From Gemmatimonadota bacterium (lineage in GTDB: Bacteria > JBHIER01 > G020348925): a DNA stretch of 12,788 nucleotides. The translations under genes and the position numbers were made by a program. The DNA lies in NCBI GenBank assembly GCA_020348925.1, contig CP070758.1:563581-576368 (forward strand). Reading direction: 5' to 3'. The notes beneath the pieces were generated by a model that was not told the origin of the DNA, ran no database searches, and saw only the letters and a list, made by a program, of their open reading frames with translations. Positions 1 to 10,722 of this stretch are shown piece after piece (position 1 is the first letter of the stretch; the number at the start of each line of letters is the position of its first letter).

Positions 1-293
1 ATTCTTTTAACATTATGAACAGTAATTTGCTTTGTTGGTTCTGGAAGTGGTAAAAAGCGACGGTAGACATTTGAACGTCTATAAATAGAGTCTGGTTTAT
101 TTGGTTTTCCTTTTCTGACAAAGAGCAAACCGTATTTTACCAGCCAAGTGTTGGCTCTATCAATTTTATGATGATAAATAGGGTCCTTTAATCCGAGGCG
201 TTCTGCGACATATATACCCGAATTTCTTAAATCGATTTGAACCTCACAATTTTGATGTCGCTCAAATTCCTTTATTATCTCATAATGTGTCAT
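1..293 (-). CDS. 5'-partial hypothetical protein (N-terminal ~97 codons; ORF continues past the window start)
   Basis: ATG at 293-291 (minus strand). Open frame to the window edge with no stop. Hand translation: MTHYEIIKEFERHQNCEVQIDLRNSGIYVAERLGLKDPIYHHKIDRANTWLVKYGLLFVRKGKPNKPDSIYRRSNVYRRFLPLPEPTKQITVHNVKR. No recognisable family. Absent from the ORF track because it has no stop inside the window. Its frame stays open upstream into the IS end until the orfB TAA at 333-335. Confidence 0.3.
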   Translation of the reverse strand, partial: MTHYEIIKEFERHQNCEVQIDLRNSGIYVAERLGLKDPIYHHKIDRANTWLVKYGLLFVRKGKPNKPDSIYRRSNVYRRFLPLPEPTKQITVHNVKR

Positions 294-332
294 GTAGGTC
301 GTCAAAGCAAGTCGGAAGTTTGATACCACATA

Positions 333-1358
333 TTAAGAGACGCTTTCAGCAAAATCAAGCGATTTCTTAGTTCTTCCAATCACCCCCTTTCCTAAATTCT
401 CAAATCGTCTCAGTTTCAGCGTTTTCTCCTTGATGTAATCCCGCATCCTCAGGATCTTCTGTCCCCTCCCATGATACACATCGGCAGGCGTGAGATTGTC
501 CAATGACTCATGATAACGGTGGTTGTTGTAATACTCCACAAACTCACCGATGGCCAGTTTCAGATCACCAGGAAAGTAGTAATTATCGAGGGTCACCACA
601 TTCTTCATCGACCGGTGATACCGTTCGATCTTCCCCTGGGTCTGGGGATGATACGGTGCACTCCGGATATGAGCCATCTCCTTTTTGCCCAGATATTCCT
701 GCATCTGTTTCGATATATAGCATGGCCCGTTGTCTGACAAAAGCCTTGGTCTGTGTCGAACCTGGACTTCGCTCACACCGGTCTTCTCCAGGGCCAGATC
801 AAGCGTCTGCTCCACATCATCGGTTGACATGGTCGGTGTCAGTCTCCAGGACAAAATGTAACGGGAATAGTCATCCATGACCGTACACAGGTAATACCAG
901 CCCCAGTGGATGATCTTGAAGTAGGAGAAATCCGTCTGCCACAGCTCATTGACCTTTTTTGTCGGTTGATGGAACTTGTCACTGGCAGACACGACGATGT
1001 AGGCAGGACTGGTGATCAGATCATATGCCTTCAAGATCCTGTACACACTCGATTCCGATATGAAGTATTCCTGGGTATCGGTAATATGCCATGCCAGCTC
1101 CCGGGGGGATTTTTCCGGATATTCCAAAGCGATATCGACGATCTGCTCCCGAATAGGGTCAGGTATCCTATTCCAGAACCGCCTGGGGGTCGGCTTCCGG
1201 TCGGCCAGTCCATCATAGCCGTTCTCGTTATACCGCCGATACCAGTCATAAAAGGTGCTGCGACAGACATCAAGCTCTTTAAGGGTCTGTTTCACTGGTA
1301 GAGGCGACTCTTCTACCAATCTGATGATCTCCATCTTCTCTGCCTGGCTGTACCGCAT
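333..1358 (-). CDS. IS3-family transposase OrfB (HTH_21 + rve/DDE integrase core)
   Basis: 341 aa. The N-terminal HTH region is ...CRSTFYDWYRRY.... The integrase core shows the spacing typical of a DDE catalytic core: WQTDFSYF...VMDDY...LSDNGPCY...HPQTQGKIERYHRS. The ORF lies in the -1 frame relative to orfA and is open from the A-run. Confidence 0.9.
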   Translation of the reverse strand: MRYSQAEKMEIIRLVEESPLPVKQTLKELDVCRSTFYDWYRRYNENGYDGLADRKPTPRRFWNRIPDPIREQIVDIALEYPEKSPRELAWHITDTQEYFISESSVYRILKAYDLITSPAYIVVSASDKFHQPTKKVNELWQTDFSYFKIIHWGWYYLCTVMDDYSRYILSWRLTPTMSTDDVEQTLDLALEKTGVSEVQVRHRPRLLSDNGPCYISKQMQEYLGKKEMAHIRSAPYHPQTQGKIERYHRSMKNVVTLDNYYFPGDLKLAIGEFVEYYNNHRYHESLDNLTPADVYHGRGQKILRMRDYIKEKTLKLRRFENLGKGVIGRTKKSLDFAESVS

Positions 1359-1372
1359 ATACCGCCCAACCT

Positions 1373-1720
1373 TTATTCCATGCCTTTCAGACTTTTTTTA
1401 AACACTCGGTTCTTCAGAGCCAGTTCAGCCACTAACTGTTTGAGCTGTTCGTTCTCCTTGCGATAGGCTTCCACTTCACTGCTAGTCGCCTCACGCTCAG
1501 TATCACCCAACAGCCGTTTCTTCCCAGCTTCAAGGAACTCTTTACTCCAGCGATAATAAAGATTGGGGTTGATTCCTTCTCTGCGGCAGAGCGATTTGAT
1601 ACTCTCCTCTCCTCGCAGCCCTTCTAAAACGATCCCTATCTTCTCTTCAGCACTAAACTTTCTTCTCGTCCTTCGTTTAATCTCTCGTACGACAGATTCT
1701 GGTGTGGTCTTCTGTTCCAT
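1373..1720 (-). CDS. IS3-family transposase OrfA (HTH DNA-binding plus leucine-zipper region)
   Basis: 115 aa. Basic N-terminus RRTRRKFSAEEKIGIV (Transposase_8-like HTH) and heptad leucines in the C-terminus (EQLKQLVAELALKNRVF). Ends VFKKSLKGME* and overlaps the A7G slippery run. Confidence 0.85.
   Translation of the reverse strand: MEQKTTPESVVREIKRRTRRKFSAEEKIGIVLEGLRGEESIKSLCRREGINPNLYYRWSKEFLEAGKKRLLGDTEREATSSEVEAYRKENEQLKQLVAELALKNRVFKKSLKGME
1392..1402 (-). promoter_or_regulatory. Programmed -1 ribosomal frameshift site (TTT AAA AAA AGT in the orfA frame; A7G slippery run)
   Basis: The minus strand reads tttAAAAAAAGtct. The orfA frame reads TTT|AAA|AAA|AGT. The -1 frame has a TAA overlapping the run and is then open as AAA|AAG|TCT|GAA... 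through to the orfB ATG 36 nt downstream. This is the classic IS3 A6-7G motif producing an OrfAB fusion. Confidence 0.6.
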
Positions 1721-2032
1721 TTCTGACTCCTTTCGGAAGAGTCAAGGTAACAAAATCCATCTCTTAATTCAAACACCAAATCTGTCCGAAATGTTCTGAC
1801 GGCTCACAATGGCGAAGAAAATGGGAATTTCTCTGAATCTCTTGGTAAATAGTCTCATATCTCAAAATTTAACTGCAGAGGAGATTGATTACGACTTCAC
1901 AAAACGGTTTGACATGATAGAATCAAAGCTTAGTAAAACTCATGTCAGACGGTAAAGATAATTATCGTTCCTCGCCTAATTCTGTTCATGCTCAACCTAG
2001 CAGGTCATCCACAATTTATCCTAAAAGATTAC

Positions 2033-2061
2033 TTGACTTATAGATTTCTCTCTTTTACATT
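2033..2061 (+). promoter_or_regulatory. Candidate sigma70-type promoter for kptA (TTGACT-17-TACATT)
   Basis: TTGACT at 2033-2038, a 17-nt spacer, and TACATT at 2056-2061, about 80 bp upstream of the 2141 ATG. Hexamer resemblance only. Confidence 0.3.
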
Positions 2062-2080
2062 CGTATGCACGAAAGCATGT

Positions 2081-2107
2081 ATGCATGAATTTGGAAATGC
2101 ATGAATG
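2081..2107 (+). repeat. Direct repeat ATGCATGAAT x2 (2081-2090, 2097-2106) in the kptA leader, followed by a GTGTG-rich tract
   Basis: Exact 10-mer repeated with 16-bp periodicity. Each unit contains the palindromic ATGCAT hexamer. Lies between the candidate promoter and the start codon. Confidence 0.4.
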
Positions 2108-2140
2108 TGGATGTGTGTAAGTGTGTGAAGGATTGAATTC

Positions 2141-2746
2141 ATGATTGATGAAATTTCGCGAAGACCTGTCGAGGATGAGACGGATAGAAACCTCGTCAGG
2201 ATCAGCAAATTCCTTAGCCTTGTGCTGCGGCACAAGCCGGAGACGATCGGACTGGAACTGGATGAGCAGGGATGGGCACGGGTTGATGAACTTCTATCCA
2301 AAGCCAATATGGCGGATTTACCCATGGATAGGGTATTGTTACGCCAGGTGGTCGAAGGCAGCGACAAGAAACGGTTCGCGTTCAGTGCGGATGGTGAAAA
2401 GATTCGAGCCAACTATGGCCACTCGATCGCAATCGATCTTGGTCGTGAATCAGCCGAACCACCGGAATTCCTTTTTCACGGGACAGCTATACGTTTCATA
2501 GTATCTATAAAGATGAAAGGAATCATTCCACAAGAGCGAACACATGTGCATTTATCGCCGGATGAGGAGTCGGCGATGGAAGTGGGGCGCCGTCACGGCA
2601 GTCCTGTTGTTCTGACTATCAAAGCGCGTCGCATGTATGAAGACGGATTCAAATTCTACCCGTCGGCCAGTGGTATCTGGCTGACGGAAAAAGTACCCTC
2701 CGAGTATATCATATTTCCGGCCGATACAGATTATTCAATGTTTTAA
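2141..2746 (+). CDS. kptA: RNA 2'-phosphotransferase, KptA/Tpt1 family
   Basis: 201 aa. N-terminal LVRISKFLSLVLRHKPETIGLELDEQGWARVDELL matches the KptA family signature (SK.LS..LRH.P...GL..D..GW). The motifs HGT, HVHLS and VVL are also conserved. GAAGGA Shine-Dalgarno 8 nt upstream of the ATG. Confidence 0.85.
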   Translation: MIDEISRRPVEDETDRNLVRISKFLSLVLRHKPETIGLELDEQGWARVDELLSKANMADLPMDRVLLRQVVEGSDKKRFAFSADGEKIRANYGHSIAIDLGRESAEPPEFLFHGTAIRFIVSIKMKGIIPQERTHVHLSPDEESAMEVGRRHGSPVVLTIKARRMYEDGFKFYPSASGIWLTEKVPSEYIIFPADTDYSMF

Positions 2747-2908
2747 GAATCTCCATTTGTTGATCGTCGCAAGAATATGTGGATATGTTCTCTATTTGTT
2801 TTTGACTGTCCGCCAAATTCTATATGGTGAGTTAACAGAGAGACCAGATAGTGGAGATATAAGGTTAGGATTAATATTCTCTTCGCATGATTGAAGTCAT
2901 AAACTGAA

Positions 2909-3109
2909 TTCATCTTCTTTTTCTTTGCTGGCCAAAGAAAAAGAAGCAAAAAGAAAGGCCAGCCCAAATCCTTCGCCGAGACTGCAAAGGCTCACTTTAC
3001 TGTTTTTTCCAAACTCATCCCCGCTATCGCGGGGATTCATACACGGAAAAAAAGACCGCTTCGTTCGCCTGTCGGTCTAACGGCTCAGGCTTAAGGGCAC
3101 TAAAGAGCC
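2909..3109. repeat. Intergenic mosaic repeat family, copy 1 (201 bp)
   Basis: Opens TTCATCTTCTTTTTCTTTGCTGGCCAAAGAAAAAGAAG, an A/T-rich hairpin at 2914-2946. Contains the hairpins CCCCGCTATCGCGGGG (3019-3034) and GCCTG-N14-CAGGC (3067-3090). Closes ...CTCAGGCTTAAGGGCACTAAAGAGCC. Near-identical blocks recur at 7790-8065 and 8900-9316. Confidence 0.65.
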
Positions 3110-3385
3110 AAGACAACATAATTCTCAGGAATTGATCCCGTTTTTGATAACTCAATACTGTAAAAATCCCCTTGACGAAGCGGTGTGCACGTTGTACTTT
3201 AAGCGGAACTGCTCGACGGAGTTTCGCCGTCGCGATTAATGAAATTGGAATAGGGGCGAGTGTCCTCACGAGCCGAGTAACTCTTTGACTTTTTAACTTT
3301 TTCACCTTCATCGGAGTCCGGGAAAGTGTAGTTGTTGAAATATCTGTGAAGATTGAGTAAGAAATGATAAACGAAAGGAGCGACC

Positions 3386-4516
3386 ATGGGCACGGATAAC
3401 ATCATTTTCTTGGAAGTCATCGAATGGTTTGACAAGACGGGACAGGAGCTGGTGCATCGGATTCCTGAAAAAGGCTCGGGCGAGATCAAATTCGGGGCAC
3501 AGTTGATCGTCCGGGACAACCAGGCGGCGGTCATGTTTTACAAGGGCAAAGCCCTGGACGCTTTCGGGCCCGGCCGACATACTTTGAAAACGGGTAATAT
3601 CCCCATCCTTACCAAGATCCTGGTCATCCCCTGGGGAATGACGAGCCCCCTTCGCGCCGAGGTCTACATGGTCAATATGAAGGTCTTTCCCAACCTCAAG
3701 TGGGGCACGCGGGAGCCGGTGGCCTTCAAGGATTCGGAGCTGGGGCTGGTCCGACTGCGGGCCCACGGTGTGTTCAACCTTCAGGTGGTCCAGCCGGTGC
3801 TCTTCATCAACAGCCTCGTGGGTACCATGGGTATATTCACGACAGAGGAGGTCGAAGAATATCTTAAGCGCGTCATTGTGTCACGGTTTAACGATCACCT
3901 GGGTGAAGAACTGGATAACCTTTTCGATCTGCCCGGCAGGTATGAAGAATTGTCCGAAGGCTTGCAAAAACGCTTGCAGGAAGATTTTGGCCGTTTCGGT
4001 CTGAGCCTCGAACATCTCTATATCACGTCAATAACACCACCGCCTGACGTCCAGAAGGCCATCGACGACAAGAGCCGCCTCAGTGTGATTCAAGATCTGG
4101 ACAAATTGGTCAAGATGAAAGCGGCCATGGCCATGGAAAAAGCCTCCGAATCAACGGGTGAAGCCGGCGCAGGATTCGGCATGGGGATGGGTTTTATGAT
4201 GCCGGCCATGTTTGCCAGCGCAATGAGACCCGAGACCGAAACAAAATCGGCCGCGGCGAAAGAGAAAGTTCAATGCCCGGACTGTAAGAATGCGATTCCC
4301 GAGGATGCGAAATTCTGTCCCCACTGCGGGCATCAGCAGGTCGTCTTCGGCCAGTGCACCAACTGCGGGAAAAACCTGCCACCGAACGCGAAGTTCTGCC
4401 CCAGGTGCGGGCGTCAGGTGGACGAGAAACCCACGCTCAAAATATGTCCCCAGTGTAAAACTGAGAACCTGCCCGGGGCCGCCTTTTGCAATCAGTGCGG
4501 GGAAAAGTTAGGGTAA
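3386..4516 (+). CDS. SPFH/band-7 (stomatin-prohibitin-flotillin-like, COG4260/YdjI-type) protein with three C-terminal tandem zinc ribbons
   Basis: 376 aa. N-terminal [22 protein letters not shown]...[21 protein letters not shown] is typical of YdjI-type SPFH proteins. The C-terminus carries three C-x2-C-x9-11-C-x2-C units: [38 protein letters not shown] and [26 protein letters not shown] Shine-Dalgarno 6 nt upstream of the ATG. Confidence 0.8.
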
Positions 4517-4517
4517 A

Positions 4518-5744
4518 ATGCATTTCACTGTCCAGCAGGAGTGTCCCCAGTGCGGCGGCCGCATTGAGCTTGAGGAGACCGACCACCTCATTCACTGCCC
4601 TTTTTGCCGTGTAAAGAATTTCCTCTTTGCCAAGGATTATCCGCGCTACATTCTCCCAGCGAAATCTCCAAAAAAAGAGATGATATATGCGCCGTATATG
4701 CGTTTCAAGGGTGTGGCCTTTTTCTGTTCCGGAACGTCCGTCCATCACCGGATCGTGGATGTGACCCTTCAGGGAACGAAATTGAAACAACTACCCCTAT
4801 CCCTGGGACTGAGGCCTCAAACACTGAAGATGGAATTTGTCTCTCCAAAGGTGACGGGCTCTTTTTTAAAGAACGCCATTGGTGTCAGCGATGTCTTCGC
4901 AAACGTGGGGAGCCGAAGATCCGTTTCCGGGGAAGAAAAACTGTTGCATCGAGCCTATGTCGGAGAGACACTGAGTTGTATCTATTCCCCTCTTTATGTC
5001 GAGAAGAATCAAGTCGTTGATGCTGTGACCAATAAACCCCTGACTGAACTTCCACATGGCGACGATGTTTTTGCTCAATTTACGGACACACATCCTGAGT
5101 GGCGGATTACGTTCATGTCCACTCTGTGTCCCAACTGCGGCTGGGATTTGGTGGGCGAACGGGACAGTGTGGTCTTGATCTGCAGGAACTGCAGTACAGT
5201 CTGGGAGGCGTCCGAAGGTAAGTTCATGGAGGTACAGTACAGCGTTGTTCCAGGCAAGAATGAGAGGACGGTGTATGTGCCCTTCTGGAGAATAACCGCC
5301 GAAGAGAACACCCTGCCGGTACATTCTTACGCTGATTTTATTCGAGTAACCGGGCAGCCAATGATGGTGCGGCAGGAGTGGGAGGCTCGGGAGATGTTCT
5401 TCTGCGTACCGGCCTTCAAGATCCGGCCCGGCGTTTTTCTGCGACTGGCGGTTCAGGCGACGTTTACTCAGCAGGATTTTGAAACTGATGGGGAGGGGCT
5501 TTCTGAAAACGTGTATCCGATCACGCTCCCACTAGCGGAAGCAGTTCAAGCCCTGAAAATTACTTTAGCGCGATCAACCGTGCATGAGAAAAAAGTCTTT
5601 CCGCTGCTTCCTCAGGTGAATTTTCGTGTCAAAGGTACAAATCTCGTTTTTCTCCCTTTCAGGGATAATGGAAATGAACTCATCCAGGAGCAGAAAGGAT
5701 TCAGTATTCTTAAAAATGCATTGAAGGCAGGGCGGAATTTGTGA
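4518..5744 (+). CDS. Zinc-ribbon protein with internal duplication (two ZnR + ~170-aa domain units); possible YdjG-like partner of the SPFH protein
   Basis: 408 aa. The ATG lies 1 nt after the upstream TAA, so the pair is translationally coupled. ZnR1 is CPQCGG...HCPFC (res 9-30). ZnR2 is CPNCGW...CRNCS (res ~206-227). Each is followed by a similar segment: YILPAKSPKKEMIYAPYMRF versus VQYSVVPGKNERTVYVPFWRI. No catalytic motif recognised. Confidence 0.65.
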   Translation: MHFTVQQECPQCGGRIELEETDHLIHCPFCRVKNFLFAKDYPRYILPAKSPKKEMIYAPYMRFKGVAFFCSGTSVHHRIVDVTLQGTKLKQLPLSLGLRPQTLKMEFVSPKVTGSFLKNAIGVSDVFANVGSRRSVSGEEKLLHRAYVGETLSCIYSPLYVEKNQVVDAVTNKPLTELPHGDDVFAQFTDTHPEWRITFMSTLCPNCGWDLVGERDSVVLICRNCSTVWEASEGKFMEVQYSVVPGKNERTVYVPFWRITAEENTLPVHSYADFIRVTGQPMMVRQEWEAREMFFCVPAFKIRPGVFLRLAVQATFTQQDFETDGEGLSENVYPITLPLAEAVQALKITLARSTVHEKKVFPLLPQVNFRVKGTNLVFLPFRDNGNELIQEQKGFSILKNALKAGRNL

Positions 5745-5785
5745 TTTAAGAGTTGTCCTTAAGGCACAGGTGGTTGCTGCGAAAT

Positions 5786-5825
5786 AGATTCTTCGACTCC
5801 GCTCCGCTTCGCTCAGAATGACAAA
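5786..5825 (+). repeat. ~40-bp REP-like element, copy A (GATTCTTCG-A-(CTYCG)3-CTCAGAATGACAAAG)
   Basis: The sequence is gattcttcgactccgctccgcttcgctcagaatgacaaag. It recurs at 10684-10722 in the same orientation and at 9528-9563 inverted. Pentamer order varies in the core. Confidence 0.6.
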
Positions 5826-6039
5826 GAGTTTTATGTCGACCCTCGCGACAATGTGAGGCAGGCACGGCTCAACGGCTGGCATGAAATCTAAAAAGAGAAA
5901 AATCCACCCTAACTCTCTTTTTCACAAGGAGGGGATAAAGACATCTTATGGAAGGTGGGATTGAGGGTATAGTAAAATCCTGTAAGATAAAATTTGTCGT
6001 ATAGGAAGTTTCTATGGAAGCTCTTTGGACAGAACGGAG

Positions 6040-6057
6040 CAGGGATATATATCCCTG
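6040..6057. promoter_or_regulatory. Perfect 18-bp palindrome CAGGGATATATATCCCTG upstream of the decarboxylase gene
   Basis: Exact inverted repeat CAGGGA-TATATA-TCCCTG, about 117 bp upstream of the 6174 ATG. Candidate operator, or a -10 region embedded in a hairpin. Confidence 0.35.
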
Positions 6058-6102
6058 CAATACTATTCGCCCGTCATACATATACTTGGCGATCAAGGAA
6101 AG

Positions 6103-6155
6103 GACGTAACCGTTCACCGAAACGGGCTTCGTTACCGTAACCGAATGACGTAACT
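6103..6155 (+). promoter_or_regulatory. Array of three CGTAAC(C/T) direct repeats immediately upstream of the decarboxylase start
   Basis: ACGTAACCG at 6104-6112, CGTAACCG at 6136-6143 and ACGTAACT at 6148-6155. The array ends about 20 bp before the GGAGGGG Shine-Dalgarno and the ATG. Candidate transcription-factor binding sites. Confidence 0.35.
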
Positions 6156-6173
6156 TGTCAATACGGAGGGGAA

Positions 6174-7616
<1,443 letters not shown>

Positions 7617-7789
7617 AAAACGATGCCATGACATTGAGTACCGAAATAAAATAAGAATATGTAGATACCTCTTTGAGGTTTGTTGTAGAGATGTCACACA
7701 TTCACGAGTTGAATATATGGTGTGAGGCTTTGAAAGAGCATAGATATAACATTTGTTAACTTCGTGTTTCAAACGGAACACGTAATGAA

Positions 7790-8065
7790 TACTTCTTTTT
7801 CTTTGCTGGCCAAGAATAAATTTGCTCACAATGAAAAAGAAAGGGGTACCATATCCGTTTGTCATTTTTCATTTTCTTTGCTTGTCCAAAGAAAATGAAG
7901 TAAAAGAAATGACAGCCCAATAAACCTTCGCCGGGATCGTCGGCGGTTCGCTTCGCTGTTTTTCCGAAACTCGTCCTCCCTGCGGTCGGACTCAGACAGC
8001 CGGAAAAACATCCGCTTCGCTCACTGGTCGATCTAACAGCTCAGGTTTCAGGGCATTGATGAGCC
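7790..8065. repeat. Intergenic mosaic repeat family, copy 2 (~276 bp; two A/T hairpin modules plus a divergent 3' module)
   Basis: Opens ACTTCTTTTTCTTTGCTGGCCAAG. Carries a second hairpin CATTTTCTTTGCTTGTCCAAAGAAAATGAAG, then ...GACAGCCCAATAAACCTTCGCCGGG.... The 3' module is ...CCGCTTCGCTCACTGGTCGATCTAACAGCTCAGGTTTCAGGGCATTGATGAGCC. Confidence 0.6.
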
Positions 8066-8090
8066 AATGTGTTCCGACAGCATACCTTCT

Positions 8091-8105
8091 CATTCTTGTG
8101 AGAAC
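8091..8105 (+). promoter_or_regulatory. Shared 15-mer CATTCTTGTGAGAAC, copy 1, 26 nt upstream of the ATG at 8131
   Basis: Identical 15-mer at 9641-9655, upstream of the next cassette gene. Contains the inverted repeat TTCT-N4-AGAA. Candidate shared promoter or operator. Confidence 0.4.
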
Positions 8106-8130
8106 CTGAAAATAAAGGTGCGGTTGTTCA

Positions 8131-8844
8131 ATGGAAATGAATAGGAAAACTGCTGCTTCAATAAGGGCCGGGATTGGCCTGCAAAACGAGCGGTCTCTCC
8201 ACGCTGCCATCAAAGAATGGTACTCACGTCCAGACGATCGTTTCGAAGTTATGGTTGACAATTATGTCGTCGATATCGTGCGAGACGATGTGCTCATTGA
8301 AATTCAGACGAAGAATCTTTCGGCCATTCATCGAAAACTGAGAGCGTTGATTCAGAATCATCCTGTCCGTTTGGTTTATCCGATACCGGAGGAGAAGTGG
8401 ATCGTCCGGGTTTCAAAATCCGGCGAAAAGATATTGAGCAGTCGAAAATCTCCTAAGAGGGGAAAATTGTCTGAGATCTTTGAAGAAGTCGTGTATATCC
8501 CCGGTCTTTTAAAGGAAGATCATTTCACCCTTGAAGTCCTGATGATTCAGGAGGAAGAGGTACGATGTGATGATGGCAAAGGGAGCTGGTGGAGAAAGGG
8601 TGTGAGCATAGTCGACAGACGATTAATTGATGTTGTGGAACAAATCCGGTTCAGCGACACGAAAGATTTTGGACGGTTTTTACCGAGAACGTTAGCTGTG
8701 CCCTTTACGAATAAAATGCTTGCTGAGGAGAGGGGTGAATCGGTCTCTCTGGCCCAGAAGATGACGTATTGTCTCAAGAAAATGGGATTGTTGAAAGAGG
8801 TAGGGAAGAAGGGCAATGAGTTATTGTTTGAGATAGTAAGATGA
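8131..8844 (+). CDS. Hypothetical protein; putative PD-(D/E)XK-fold nuclease-like N-domain with a winged-helix-like C-terminus
   Basis: 237 aa. The pattern helix-E (ERSLHAAIKEWY), then beta-strand D (NYVVDIVRDD), then hhhExQxK (VLIEIQTKN) is characteristic of restriction-endonuclease-fold and Rpn/YhgA-like proteins. The C-terminal LAQKMTYCLKKMGLLKEVGKKGNELLFEI looks like a wHTH. The family is not identified and the assignment is inferential. Confidence 0.55.
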   Translation: MEMNRKTAASIRAGIGLQNERSLHAAIKEWYSRPDDRFEVMVDNYVVDIVRDDVLIEIQTKNLSAIHRKLRALIQNHPVRLVYPIPEEKWIVRVSKSGEKILSSRKSPKRGKLSEIFEEVVYIPGLLKEDHFTLEVLMIQEEEVRCDDGKGSWWRKGVSIVDRRLIDVVEQIRFSDTKDFGRFLPRTLAVPFTNKMLAEERGESVSLAQKMTYCLKKMGLLKEVGKKGNELLFEIVR

Positions 8845-8899
8845 GATGAAACGATTCGCAGGGGGGGTACCATTTCCATCATATGAGAAAATTAAAAGG

Positions 8900-9316
8900 T
8901 TCATCTTCTTTTTCTTTACTGGCCAAAGAAAAAGTGTATTCGCTTTGCTCAACACTTCCAAGGGGCTCTCGCCCCTATGGCGGATTTCAGTGTTCAACCA
9001 GCTCACATCGATATTCTGTTACCCCTCGGAGGAAAGCACATTCTTTCCTCCGAACCACCTGATGTACATCTTGAAAATTTACACAATTTCCAAGATGCAT
9101 AAGAATCAAAAAGAAAGACCAGCCCAAAGCCTTCGCCGAGACCGTCAACGGCTCACGGCACTGTTTTTTCAAAACTCATCCCGCTTTCGCGGGATTCAGA
9201 CACGGAAAAAACGAAAGCCTGTCCTGAGCAGTTCGACTTCGCTCACTATAAACTTTGTCGAAGGGCTCCGTTCGCCTGTCGGTCTAACGGCTCAGGCTTC
9301 AGGGCATTGAAGAGTC
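8900..9316. repeat. Intergenic mosaic repeat family, copy 3 (417 bp; copy-1 backbone with a ~170-bp insert and a duplicated hybrid 3' module)
   Basis: Opens TTCATCTTCTTTTTCTTTACTGGCCAAAGAAAAAG. A 170-bp insert spans 8937-9106. The sequence then resumes CAAAAAGAAAGACCAGCCCAAAGCCTTCGCCGAG...CCCGCTTTCGCGGG.... The 3' end holds both a copy-2-like unit (GACTTCGCTCACT...) and a copy-1-like unit (GTTCGCCTGTCGGTCTAACGGCTCAGGCTTCAGGGCATTGAAGAG). Confidence 0.6.
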
Positions 9317-9395
9317 GATGCATTATCATAGTACAATTTCTTATGGTTCTTGATTATGAAAGTTATACCATCATGTCTGACATTCCTTAAGTTGA

Positions 9396-9634
9396 TTTAT
9401 TTAATCTGATTAATTCATGAAGTACTATGCAGACGAATGCACAGCTCTTGCGAAACCGGTGCTGCATGCAGATTTATCCACTCCACAAGGCCATACTGGC
9501 CTTGTTCCGGTCGAAATGACAGAAGGTGTCATTCTGAGCGGAGCGAAGCGAAGCCGAAGAATCTGAATGGTAACTGCTTGCATATTACGTGTATGGCATA
9601 CAACGATATGTTTGTGATTAATTCAGATTAATAA
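9396..9634. mobile_element. MITE-like insert, ~240 bp, bounded by imperfect inverted repeats (TTAATCTGATTAATTCA ... TGATTAATTCAGATTAA) and carrying one inverted REP-like element
   Basis: The left IR lies at 9396-9412 and the right IR at about 9615-9634. The interior holds GTCATTCTGAGCGGAGCGAAGCGAAGCCGAAGAATC (9528-9563), which is the reverse complement of the 5786 and 10684 elements. No ORF of its own. Confidence 0.4.
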
Positions 9635-9640
9635 CCAATA

Positions 9641-9655
9641 CATTCTTGTGAGAAC
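9641..9655 (+). promoter_or_regulatory. Shared 15-mer CATTCTTGTGAGAAC, copy 2, 39 nt upstream of the ATG at 9694
   Basis: Exact match to 8091-8105. Followed by an AAGGATAAGGAAA Shine-Dalgarno-like region. Confidence 0.4.
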
Positions 9656-9693
9656 TCAAAGATGTCTTCCATCTGAAAGGATAAGGAAATACG

Positions 9694-10326
9694 ATGTCCG
9701 CAAAACTATGTCCGAAAATTATTCTTGAGGGAACCCGGCTCACACTGAAAACGGACATTGCCTTTGCCCTGAACGAACATCCGCGTATTGTCGGTCCTCG
9801 GAAGTACAGATATCACTCGCCGTTGATCTCGGCGGAATGGTGTGCCTTCACCAACGTTCCCTGGGGACGGGGGCTCATCAATTTCGAGCCGCAGGAGGAG
9901 GATCGGGCCATGGAGACATACAAAACGTGGGCTCGATTGTTCGAGTTGTTGTGTTATTATTCCTGGATCATTGACCGTTTTCATATATCGACCCGGGCGT
10001 ACCAGTTGCAGACGTACGATACAGATTACGATTTCGGCTGGCTGGAGGAGCGACTGGCTGCCCTCGGTTTCCACCTCGTCTTCTGCACACGGACGCCGGA
10101 GTCCTTTGAAGCGGCCCGCGGGGAGAGAATAAAGATATCCGGGAAACCGGATCAGTACGATAATCTGGATGTCTTCATTCGTGAGCAGGAGCTCATGCGC
10201 CGTCTGATCGGTGAGTCCGTTTTACCCACGCTGGAGCTGGACATGTCCGATAGCAATGTGGGATCCGCAGTGGAGAGGATCGCCGACTGGCTGAGGGAGA
10301 CCGGCGGTGCATGGGCAAAAGAGTGA
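9694..10326 (+). CDS. Thymidylate-kinase-like (dNMP kinase fold) protein with a degenerate Walker A motif
   Basis: 210 aa. The N-terminal KIILEGTRLTLKT aligns with the Tmk P-loop h-h-h-EG-x-D-x-[AS]-GKST, but the glycine before the lysine is leucine (GTRLTLKT). The Tmk DR(Y/F/H)xxS..AYQ motif is retained as IDRFHISTRAYQLQ. Either a pseudokinase or a kinase of altered specificity. Confidence 0.55.
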   Translation: MSAKLCPKIILEGTRLTLKTDIAFALNEHPRIVGPRKYRYHSPLISAEWCAFTNVPWGRGLINFEPQEEDRAMETYKTWARLFELLCYYSWIIDRFHISTRAYQLQTYDTDYDFGWLEERLAALGFHLVFCTRTPESFEAARGERIKISGKPDQYDNLDVFIREQELMRRLIGESVLPTLELDMSDSNVGSAVERIADWLRETGGAWAKE

Positions 10327-10683
10327 TCGGAGCATTCAGTGTAACGAGAAAAATATCTTGAACACATTCGATACAGCCTAACCTTAAAAGTTTTGAGATT
10401 TTTACAGACACAACGTCTTTCCATTCGTTCCGAAATCCCCCCAATTTACTCTATTTTTAAATTCTCCAATTAAGTTGACGATATTCTTGATCCATCGACT
10501 CTCCACATGACAGCAAGTATCAATGAGAGTATGAAACTGTTGACTTGCAAAGCCGTCATTTTAATCCCCGGAACAAGCCAAGGGCGGGATTCGGGGAGAT
10601 ATGGCCTTCATCCCTACAGATTCCTCGATTCGGCGGAGCCTGTGCCAGGCTAAATACGTCACGTTAAGGTGTTCGCCATGCCA

Positions 10684-10722
10684 GATTCTTCGACTACGCT
10701 TCGCTTCGCTCAGAATGACAAA
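10684..10722 (+). repeat. ~40-bp REP-like element, copy C
   Basis: The sequence is gattcttcgactacgcttcgcttcgctcagaatgacaaa. Same ends as copy A. The core pentamers are CTACG, CTTCG, CTTCG. Confidence 0.6.

Follow-up and report, generated by a model that had tools for sequence, protein, structure and literature searches.

The question raised by this locus is whether three long, similar repeats lying between its genes bound mobile gene cassettes, as an earlier note made from the sequence proposed, or are themselves the mobile units. The window, i.e., the whole stretch of 12,788 nucleotides analysed (contig CP070758.1 of a Gemmatimonadota bacterium, positions 563,581 to 576,368), contains the three intergenic copies where that note had placed them, at 2909–3122 (copy 1), 7787–8093 (copy 2) and 8900–9344 (copy 3), all on the + strand. 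Their similarity is far beyond chance (blastn E 1e-29 to 1e-33), and the four modules originally quoted were recovered in all of them by repeat search and MAFFT alignment. Copies 1 and 3 match at 87% identity over 116 nt (E 6e-33), 92% over 50 nt and 97% over 35 nt, and copies 1 and 2 at 76% over 205 nt (E 1e-29). The 3' ends first given were too short, homology among the window copies continuing for about 25–30 nt further, and weak similarity to the copy at locus L009 extends beyond the tail of copy 3 as far as about 9372.

The repeats consist of two units, which we refer to as Y and X. Y is ~200–230 nt long and starts with an A/T-rich 5' hairpin that can pair, through its GCTGGCC loop, with a downstream GGCCAGC. 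An imperfect inverted repeat of ~140 nt follows, in which modules 2 and 4 form ~26 bp around a T-run/A-run stem and a GC hairpin. The earlier statement that terminal inverted repeats are lacking holds for the termini, yet there is this long internal inverted repeat. Copy 1, delimited by repeat search, MAFFT, blastn and folding, is Y without X; it comprises the module 1 hairpin (2914–2946) and the 3' inverted-repeat domain (2962–3098), closed by a GCCC...GGGC helix and containing the inner T-run/A-run stem (3002–3010 with 3045–3053) and the apical GC hairpin (3020–3035). Copy 2 was correctly located but is not a single copy: a truncated 5' fragment (copy 2a, 7790–7835), consisting of a module 1 of the CCAAGAATAA type, as in L001 and L010, and the first ~20 nt of X (TTTGCTCACAATG), is followed by a complete Y without X (copy 2b, 7862–8068, or to about 8093 with its 3' tail) with the module 1 hairpin at 7868–7900 and the 3' domain at 7915–8054. 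Copy 3 is a full composite XY with a 3' tail to about 9344, in which module 1 (8905–8934) is followed by X (8935–9103, 169 nt, with AAG on either side) and the 3' domain (9122–9305).

X is ~165–210 nt long and forms three to four hairpins, which in copy 3 include a GC hairpin (8963–8976), GGAGGAAAG/CTTTCCTCC (9029–9054) and ATCTTGAAAATT/AATTTCCAAGAT (9068–9096), along with a conserved single-stranded stretch CCAGCTCACATCG...CTGTTACCCC. It corresponds to what had been described as a 170-bp insertion in copy 3; the insertion is there but is not private, as X occupies the identical position of Y in six copies (the window and five other metagenome contigs) and also occurs at two solo loci. What is private to copy 3 is a further insert of 48 nt within its 3' domain (9213–9260), which has the CTTCGCTC motif; this motif is common to X, Y and the unrelated Z repeats and is ~12-fold enriched in the window. 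The element is not markedly AT-rich (45–46% GC, compared to a window mean of 49%). One reading frame of X is open in 8/8 copies. Because indels between aligned copies are not multiples of three and the protein-database matches of the repeats are only spurious ORFs over other copies, the X/Y repeats are, judging from their sequence, non-coding.

The surroundings of the repeats are informative in relatives. Loci L002 and L003 have the same gene order as the window (Tpt1, SPFH, zinc-finger protein, PLP decarboxylase, DUF8091 and a 221-aa homologue), with 74–80% DNA identity between the syntenic genes of the window and L002, but the three spacers, which measure 639, 514 and 849 nt in the window, are 233, 47 and 66 nt long in L002 and repeat-free in both relatives. 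Window segments 2755–3160, 7622–8129 and 8836–9671 have no counterpart in L002. The spacer between the PLP decarboxylase and DUF8091 genes, where copy 2 resides, is 35 nt in L008 (whose DUF8091 protein is 85% identical to that of the window) and 56 nt in L004–L007, and is repeat-free in L008 and L004. The conserved order thus occurs without repeats in three related metagenome lineages, with spacers of 35–233 nt compared to 514–849 nt in the window, which shows that the window copies were inserted between genes of a block that relatives without them keep in the same order. The earlier note had named gain or loss of repeat-plus-gene units among strains as decisive for its cassette view; the relatives keep the gene order with repeat-free spacers, and therefore the strain-variable part is the repeat alone.

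One of these insertions is a 406-nt segment containing copy 1 (2755–3160, + strand) that is absent from the Tpt1/SPFH spacer of L002 (BLAST edges: window 2023–2754 to L002 4830–5546 and window 3161–4832 to L002 5536–7218). Only 214 nt of it, 2909–3122, belong to the repeat family, 2755–2908 being outside. The segment is flanked on the left by GATTATTCAATGTTTTAAGAATCTCC (2729–2754), which begins 15 nt before the Tpt1 stop codon and ends 8 nt beyond it, and on the right by the direct repeat GATAACTCAATACTGTAAAAATCCCC (3146–3171), which runs into spacer conserved with L002 that contains a promoter-like TTGACG-17 nt-TACTTT. At the empty site the BLAST matches overlap by 11 nt (L002 5536–5546), and by eye the repeat spans 26 nt with 19/26 identical positions. 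A duplication of 11–26 nt is unusually long for a DDE transposase, and it flanks the 406 nt rather than the 214-nt repeat; exact flanking repeats of 9–11 nt are no commoner in the window than chance predicts. Direct repeats of 3 nt surround X, namely TTA/TTA and ATA/ATA at only two solo copies and AAG/AAG at the nested X; precisely where X starts on its 5' side is ambiguous. For Y, neither clear terminal inverted repeats nor a consistent target duplication are seen in the available copies. The sole mobility gene in the window is an IS3-family DDE transposase pair (333–1720, minus strand), and the inverted repeats and ends of this element (about 293–1808) are unrelated to the repeats; with the window IS checked, no transposase with ends matching them was identified. 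As previously noted, the window has no integrase gene; it also lacks a gene for an Xer-type recombinase, and there is no tnpA or tnpB in the window or any other locus examined.

The comparison draws on a small set of 10 copies, taken from about 7 sources. Those outside the window lie in different surroundings: after the gene of a T9SS-tailed protein (L001), between the tmRNA gene and an ECF sigma factor gene (L009), at L010 and L011, and next to a tRNA (L012). The solo X in L002/L003 (8297–8507) is inverted and in a different spacer, and that in L013 is read through in frame within a DUF6036-type nucleotidyltransferase-like ORF, adding 55 codons. The family is therefore dispersed over unrelated genomic contexts in several metagenomes. 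Copy 2b is 79–81% identical to the L011 and L012 copies compared to 73–74% to copies 1 and 3, a divergence that shows two subfamilies coexisting in the window genome. Neither X nor Y has a match in Rfam, GTDB representative genomes, viral contigs, phages or plasmids, and the Rfam search suggested earlier named no known family. The initial description of a modular, hairpin-rich family of mobile-element character is thus supported, and the family fits none described.

Both units are strongly folded. Compared with shuffled sequences, copy 1 reaches a z-score of -4.9, copy 2 one of -3.1, and copy 3 one of -5.5 on one strand and -6.7 on the other. The 3' domain of Y has 44 pairs with 92% of cells paired, and 14 pairs changed on both sides compared to 6.7 ± 1.6 after shuffling (0/500 reach 14) and 1–4 in slid controls; X has 31 pairs, 8 of which changed on both sides compared to 3.3 ± 1.3 (0/500 reach 8). 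Helices in X and Y are thus kept by compensatory changes. Wobbles in the supported helices (12 G.U versus 15 A.C) indicate no G.U bias for either strand.

These helices could alternatively point to a selected RNA function, the repeats being primarily structured RNAs of ~200–420 nt that act in cis in 3'-UTRs or between cistrons (as terminators, stabilisers or processing sites) or represent a multi-copy sRNA gene, with mobility secondary. We consider this unlikely. It would account for the many compensated helices, the very stable fold (z -5.5 to -6.7) and the finding that, in each of the seven Y/XY contexts where the upstream gene is known (copies 1–3, L001, L009, L011 and L012), repeat and gene share one orientation; four of the seven orientations, however, come from loci found via called ORFs and may hence be open to strand bias. 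Two of the seven contexts are enclosed by convergent genes, where a terminator is more useful than a promoter, and copies 2 and 3 reside inside a gene pair that is tight and probably co-transcribed in relatives, and must therefore tolerate or shape read-through. However, the lack of strand asymmetry in the wobbles is expected for DNA palindromes or folding of either strand, Rfam has no matching family, the element ends have no conserved promoter or intrinsic terminator, in L001 and L009 the upstream gene already has a terminator-like hairpin ahead of the copy, and a locus-specific function is difficult to reconcile with presence/absence polymorphism at orthologous sites and with inverted and intragenic X.

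Single-strand transposition debris, the IS200/IS605-derived (PATE-like) origin raised earlier or an IS91-type derivative, with a Y1/HUH transposase binding subterminal hairpins, is decidedly improbable in our estimate. Hairpins near both ends without true terminal inverted repeats, structure equally conserved on both strands, and the occurrence of CTTCGCTC in X, Y and Z, which could be a common recognition site, are what such elements would leave. In IS200/IS605 the left-end and right-end hairpins resemble each other and insertion makes no duplication, whereas here the 5' A/T-rich hairpin is unlike the 3' structures, direct repeats flank solo X and the copy 1 insertion, no conserved 4–5-nt target precedes the copies, and tnpA/tnpB are missing as stated above. 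Even less credible are recombination sites bounding mobile cassettes, comparable to integron attC or Xer pdif modules, a reading already contradicted by the synteny data: L002/L003 have the repeat at 0/3 junctions of the same genes, and where copy 2 lies, the spacers of L008 and L004 are short and repeat-free. Copies 2 and 3 do bracket a single gene, all three copies are oriented as the genes are, module 4 (GTCTAAC) fits RYYYAAC in copies 1 and 3, and regional gene content does vary at larger distances, as neither the SPFH pair nor the 210-aa gene is present in L004, a more distant relative. However, the paired GTTRRRY is absent, AAC is replaced in L009 (TCTTTCG), L010 and L012, no such recombinase gene lies in the window, elements of 200–445 nt are, as first remarked, far longer than attC, and the family also occurs beside tmRNA, beside tRNA and inside an ORF.

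We conclude, with a probability of about two in three, that the repeats represent a MITE/BOX-like mobile family, non-coding and non-autonomous, composed of two nested units, and the best reading is that this family is new, in an uncultured lineage. X is itself an independent repeat, one copy of which would have landed in the A-rich 3' arm of the first hairpin of Y, between AAG triplets, after which the XY composite would have spread; copies 1 and 2b may either be ancestral and never have contained X or have lost it by precise deletion. The mosaic pattern, previously attributed to recombination between copies, is better explained by nesting or loss of X together with small indels. A transposase encoded elsewhere would move the elements in trans by recognising conserved hairpins or ends, with X probably making target duplications of about 3 bp. 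The copies would have no role in organising cassettes, and neighbouring genes, if influenced at all, would be so incidentally, through read-through transcripts that fold and act as terminator, stabiliser or insulator, as for REP, BOX and Correia.

Among known systems, integron attC sites share imperfect palindromes between co-oriented genes but differ in size, in their R'/R'' pair and integrase, both missing here, and in that these genes are syntenic in repeat-free relatives. REP/BIME elements with RAYT transposases likewise form mosaics of palindromic units in spacers at gene 3' ends with likely side effects on mRNA 3' ends, but X/Y have no 20–40-nt REP unit with a GTAG head, are 5–10 times longer, and no RAYT gene was seen. 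Prokaryotic MITEs, including QMITE2 of Coxiella, Correia/NEMIS of Neisseria and Nezha, and their in-frame intragenic insertion have been described (PMC10969869); the present repeats resemble them in being small, non-coding, multi-copy, intergenic and strongly base-paired, in presence/absence polymorphism among relatives, in short direct repeats at junctions and in multiple subfamilies, and differ in that the long inverted repeat is internal with none evident at the termini, GC content is barely below that of the window, no parent IS is matched and the copy 1 duplication is longer than usual. Rickettsia palindromic elements (RPE, PMC10969869), ~150-nt palindromic repeats found in frame without a stop in coding genes, recall X in L013 but have no sequence relation to X/Y; the single intragenic X was found through ORF read-through, an ascertainment bias, and most copies are intergenic. 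The BOX repeats of Streptococcus are modular, with the arrangement boxA-boxB(n)-boxC, an optional inner module, boxE/F variants in S. suis, a size of 67–637 bp and open frames on both strands (PMC3049150). The X/Y repeats are similarly interspersed in intergenic regions, transposase-less and variable in size, with fixed outer parts, a predicted fold that tolerates the presence or absence of the inner module, and chance open frames on both strands called as genes. They differ from BOX in phylum and have no sequence similarity to it; their inner module, X, is ~170 nt long, single rather than a tandem array and also free-standing at other sites, and their outer part contains the inverted-repeat domain of ~140 nt.

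The window contains three intergenic repeats, all in the same orientation, namely copy 1 (2909-3122), copy 2 (7787-8093) and copy 3 (8900-9344). Their description in the earlier note is confirmed with corrections: blastn comparisons among the copies give E values of 1e-29 to 1e-33, the folds are far better than those of shuffled sequences (z = -5.5 for the plus strand and -6.7 for the minus strand of copy 3 and, with folding as DNA, -4.9 for copy 1 and -3.1 for copy 2), and all four sequence modules quoted there are found in the window copies. Copies 1 and 3 are 87-97% identical and copy 2 is 74-76% identical to either of them, with indels between copies that disrupt the reading frames. In copy 2, a complete element of the short form (7862-8093) is preceded by a 5' fragment that is truncated (7790-7835), and a 48-nt insert (9213-9260) is private to copy 3. 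The flanks upstream of module 1 have no significant similarity among the copies, which indicates that the element does not reach further 5' than module 1.

The repeats can be decomposed into two units. The unit that we call Y, present alone in the short form, starts with an A/T-rich 5' hairpin with a 13-14-bp stem and continues into a 3' domain, an imperfect inverted repeat of ~140 nt, where module 2 pairs with module 4 as an internal, ~26-bp imperfect inverted repeat with covariation; the domain has a GCCC/GGGC closure, inside which lie a T-run/A-run stem and a GC hairpin. The second unit, X, is 169 nt long in copy 3 (8935-9103), where it is nested in Y, and its ends read GCTCGCTTCGCTCGC... 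and ...AATTTCCGAGATGNNAAG. The earlier note had recorded it as a 170-bp insertion of copy 3; the unit is real but not private to that copy, as it occupies the identical position in the metagenome loci L001 and L009-L012. Of the copies outside the window, L001 came from one metagenome pattern match and L009-L013 were reached via spurious ORFs in the protein databases (P0121-P0124 and P0126). Copy 1 equals L009 minus precisely X and one AAG. Solo copies of X also occur: an inverted one at 8297-8507 of L002/L003, contigs of a related lineage, between the zinc-finger gene and the PLP decarboxylase gene, and one of 165 nt in L013, where it is read through in frame within the ORF of a DUF6036-type nucleotidyltransferase (130-591) and adds 55 codons. 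Taking X plus one ATA out of L013 restores a continuous ...GYKPNIPVPARDF... A small ATG-started ORF of 41-50 codons (MADF..PAHI..LLPLGGKHILSSEPPDVHL) is open in copy 3 (8981-9106), L009 (380-505) and L001 (2208-2360); this frame is probably not a gene, because it is broken in L002 and its substitutions are not significantly concentrated in third positions (11/24). X has a second frame that is open in each of the eight copies.

The genes around the repeats were assigned with Pfam. On the plus strand they encode Tpt1/KptA (2141-2746), an SPFH protein with zinc ribbons (3386-4516), a zinc-finger protein (4518-5744), a PLP-dependent decarboxylase (6174-7616), a DUF8091 protein (8137-8844) and a 210-aa protein (9694-10326) with a faint likeness to thymidylate kinase (E 0.05); an IS3-family transposase pair (333-1720) lies on the minus strand. 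PADLOC defence models gave no matches among the proteins neighbouring the repeats, and there is no defence-island context. The DUF8091 protein is 100% identical to an NCBI protein with the locus tag JSV84_02230, encoded by a metagenome-assembled genome labelled 'Gemmatimonadota bacterium'. Contigs of three related lineages were reached via homologues of the DUF8091 protein. In L002/L003, where this protein is 78% identical to that of the window and the syntenic genes are 74-80% identical in DNA, the order and orientation from Tpt1 through SPFH, the zinc-finger protein, the PLP decarboxylase and DUF8091 to the 210-aa homologue are the same as in the window. The spacers differ in length: 639 nt in the window against 233 nt in L002/L003 between Tpt1 and SPFH, 514 against 47 nt between the PLP decarboxylase and DUF8091, and 849 against 66 nt between DUF8091 and the next gene. 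The parts of the window that carry copies 1, 2 and 3 (2755-3160, 7622-8129 and 8836-9671, respectively) are absent from L002, and L002 has X at a site where the window has none. The spacer between the PLP decarboxylase and DUF8091 is likewise repeat-free in the other two lineages (35 nt in L008, at 85% protein identity, and 56 nt in L004-L007). Since the block is conserved in relatives that lack the repeats, its spacers acquired them later by insertion. Copy 1 precedes a spacer segment that is conserved with L002 and contains a promoter-like TTGACG-17 nt-TACTTT (3174-3202), and is therefore outside the native leader of the SPFH operon. In the more distant relative L004, two small ORFs (93 and 147 aa) replace the SPFH and zinc-finger pair (305-3497, compared with window 2141-7616) and the 210-aa gene is missing; gene content thus varies here at larger evolutionary distance, and those junctions of L004 contain neither X nor Y.

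At the insertion junctions, TTA/TTA borders the solo X of L002, ATA/ATA that of L013 and AAG/AAG the nested X. For copy 1, the alignments of the window to the empty site of L002 overlap by 11 nt, and a 26-nt direct repeat with 19 of 26 positions identical (73%; 2729-2754 and 3146-3171) brackets 406 nt, of which the repeat family accounts for just 214 nt. No duplication is recognisable at the other Y copies and, taken by themselves, exact 9-11-nt repeats in flanking positions occur in the window no more often than expected by chance.

Conservation of base pairing was assessed in eight sequences for each unit. The 3' domain of Y has 44 pairs with 92% of cells paired, and 14 of the pairs have changed on both sides, compared to 6.7 +/- 1.6 in shuffled controls (none of 500 reaches 14) and 1-4 in slid controls. 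In X, 8 of 31 pairs have changed on both sides, with 91% of cells paired; the shuffled controls give 3.3 +/- 1.3 (none of 500 reaches 8) and the slid ones 0-3. Entire hairpins have been swapped for other sequence of like shape, for example GGGGCtctcGCCCC versus TCCCGAAggctTTCGGGA, and the third hairpin is shortened in L012. These comparisons demonstrate selection on pairing in both X and Y. An assignment of the RNA strand by wobble pairs looked positive with four or five sequences and disappeared with eight, where the supported helices contain 12 G.U and 15 A.C cells; with this balance, the data do not single out one RNA strand as the object of selection, and they agree equally well with pairing at the DNA level or in RNA from either strand.

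Public data contain few members of the family: when 1.8 billion protein representatives were scanned in full with HMMER, just five ORFs matched, all of them overlying copies of the repeat. The pattern TCTAACRGCTCAGGYTTNAGGGCA occurred once in metagenomes (L001) and was absent from GTDB representative genomes and viral contigs; CCAGCNCACATCGNNNNNCTGTTACCC was likewise absent from both of the latter sets, and GGNGGAAAGCACATYCTTTCCNCC, the best-conserved pattern of X (7 of 8 copies), from viral contigs. BLAST against phages and plasmids gave no match to the family. The Rfam search that the earlier note proposed found no described RNA family for the copies: in scans of the window, L001, L002, L004 and L009-L013 at E <= 1, no covariance model of Rfam 15 identified any copy, and the matches were confined to Flavo-1 (E 0.68), which falls on the A/T hairpin, one tmRNA, one tRNA and a snoRNA model hit by chance. 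Within the family, copy 2 is 79-81% identical to L011 and L012 and 73-74% to copies 1 and 3, which themselves group with L009 and L011 at 82-85%. By these identities, two old subfamilies coexist in the window genome, which argues for repeated transposition over local duplication.

The loci demonstrate insertion polymorphism, dispersal in unrelated contexts, nesting and subfamilies, and the best-supported reading is that the repeats are non-autonomous mobile elements of the MITE/BOX kind. MITEs are small (under ~600 bp), non-coding and multi-copy, with terminal inverted repeats, a target-site duplication of fixed length and, in the same genome, a cognate autonomous IS whose ends match. X/Y elements are also small, non-coding and multi-copy, with three copies in the window, a further seven at other loci and presence/absence polymorphism at orthologous sites; their outermost conserved ends (TTCTTTTTCTTTGCTGGCC ... 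CTCAGGCTTCAGGGCA) are not mutual inverted repeats. In behaviour the closest analogue is the modular BOX family of streptococci, where an inner module between the outer ones is optional and is tolerated by the fold, and where both strands contain ORFs (PMC3049150). MITEs of prokaryotes generally are also near, and the in-frame X of L013 is reminiscent of Rickettsia palindromic elements (PMC10969869). None of these has a sequence relation to the X/Y family, which is not previously described even though its kind is already known. REP/BIME elements differ in that the 20-40-nt REP palindrome with its conserved head tetranucleotide is absent inside X and Y; a GTAG-headed palindrome at 2500-2527 of L001 lies outside the element. 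As to mechanism, X would be a miniature element that entered the A-rich arm of the first hairpin of Y with a 3-bp target duplication, after which the composite XY would have spread. Mobilisation would occur in trans by a transposase encoded elsewhere, and any effect on neighbouring genes would presumably be exerted via folded read-through RNA. The IS3-family element of the window (~293-1808, minus strand, with orfA at 1373-1720 and orfB at 333-1358) was rejected as the parent, because its ~35-bp imperfect terminal inverted repeats, which begin with TGT, are unrelated to X, Y and a further repeat family, Z.

The earlier note had viewed the repeats as gene-cassette boundaries. This is contradicted by L002/L003, which keep the same genes in the same order without repeats, so that units of repeat plus gene are not gained or lost in a cassette-like manner at these boundaries. 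attC sites are 55-140 nt long and pair an R'' RYYYAAC with an R' GTTRRRY, and their arrays adjoin a gene for the tyrosine integrase intI. The elements studied here are 214-445 nt long and the R'/R'' pair is missing: the GTCTAAC of module 4 in copies 1 and 3 is partnered with the AA bulged and no GTTRRRY follows, and the RYYYAAC-like motif is not conserved in L009 (TCTTTCG), L010 and L012. The statement that no integrase is encoded holds, as the Pfam scan of ORFs in the 12.8-kb window returned the IS3-type rve transposase only. An origin from hairpin-recognised single-strand elements, proposed in the form of an IS200/IS605-derived PATE, is disfavoured. IS200/IS605 elements have alike left and right subterminal hairpins and insert 3' of a fixed 4-5-nt target without target duplication. 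Here the A/T-rich 5' hairpin is unlike the GC-rich long-range helix of the 3' end, both solo copies of X lie between direct repeats, as does the segment with copy 1, the 5' flanks (few junctions) have no common sequence, and Y1 TnpA, with or without TnpB, was found neither in the window nor in the loci of relatives examined.

It is possible that the element works primarily at the RNA level. Wherever the gene upstream of a Y or XY copy is known (seven contexts), the copy has the orientation of that gene, and two of the seven sit between convergent genes; ascertainment bias may explain part of this orientation signal. A much bolder version, to which we assign very little credence, would make XY, at ~360-420 nt, a mobile structured RNA and not what is left of a DNA transposon. 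Such an RNA could be the orphan scaffold or guide of a nuclease or recombinase that is RNA-guided and encoded by a transposon, or a retro-mobile, SINE-like RNA, and it would suit the covariation-backed multi-helix fold, the flanking duplications, which vary in length from 3 to ~26 nt, and the uniform co-orientation.

Reading the repeats as mobile elements of the MITE/BOX kind removes a false lead from the annotation, there being no cassette system at this locus, and explains spurious 140-160-aa "hypothetical proteins" called on the repeats (P0121-P0124, P0126 and a 154-codon ORF at 8846-9310). For mobile-element biology it provides a clean case of one miniature element inside another, with the composite then spreading, together with hairpins that compensatory changes have kept in different lineages and a single insertion in frame within a gene. 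Strains of this uncultured lineage could be told apart with the family as a marker. If the transcripts are functional, it would also be a test case for operon rewiring by such repeats, since the genes separated by copies 2 and 3 are spaced by no more than 47-66 nt in relatives.

Several minor observations concern other repeats and motifs. The family Z (core GTCATTCTGAGCGGAGCGAAGCGAAGCCGAAGAATCT), unrelated to X and Y, has three copies of 79-95% identity, each in a spacer, at 5786-5841 (+), 9509-9565 (-) and 10682-10722 (+). The middle copy lies in a 197-nt segment (9418-9614) that is missing in L002 and has the same 11-nt sequence, TGATTAATTCA, as a direct repeat on either side (9407-9417 and 9615-9625). 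The 8-mer CTTCGCTC occurs six times in the window (767, 5807, 8015, 9237, 9541 on the minus strand, and 10704) compared to 0.49 expected, a count reached by none of 200 shuffles. Five of the six sites are inside repeats (the three Z copies, copy 2 and the private insert of copy 3), and X begins with close variants of the 8-mer (GTTCACTTCGCTCAACAC; GCTCGCTTCGCTCGC), which may be a shared recognition motif of whatever moves these elements. An identical 15-nt motif, CATTCTTGTGAGAAC, is found at 8091-8105 and 9643-9657, where it precedes the start codons of the DUF8091 and 210-aa genes by 25-37 nt, and just past a gene end in L001 (129-142). It is absent from the matching spacers of L002 and L008, and could be a repeat tail, a tiny insertion or a regulatory site. 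In two of the seven Y/XY contexts a tmRNA or tRNA gene (L009 1-164; L012 1016-1090, minus strand) is within 150-400 nt of the repeat, which exceeds the random-spacer expectation by a rough estimate (p ~0.01); no duplication of a tRNA or tmRNA 3' end was seen at these two loci. Runs of a short degenerate AAGTCGAAAGGTCAAAAAGTCGAAAAG-like unit (L012 165-200, 660-700 and 805-845) border the XY copy of L012 on both sides and recur downstream, and represent another low-complexity repeat of that organism.
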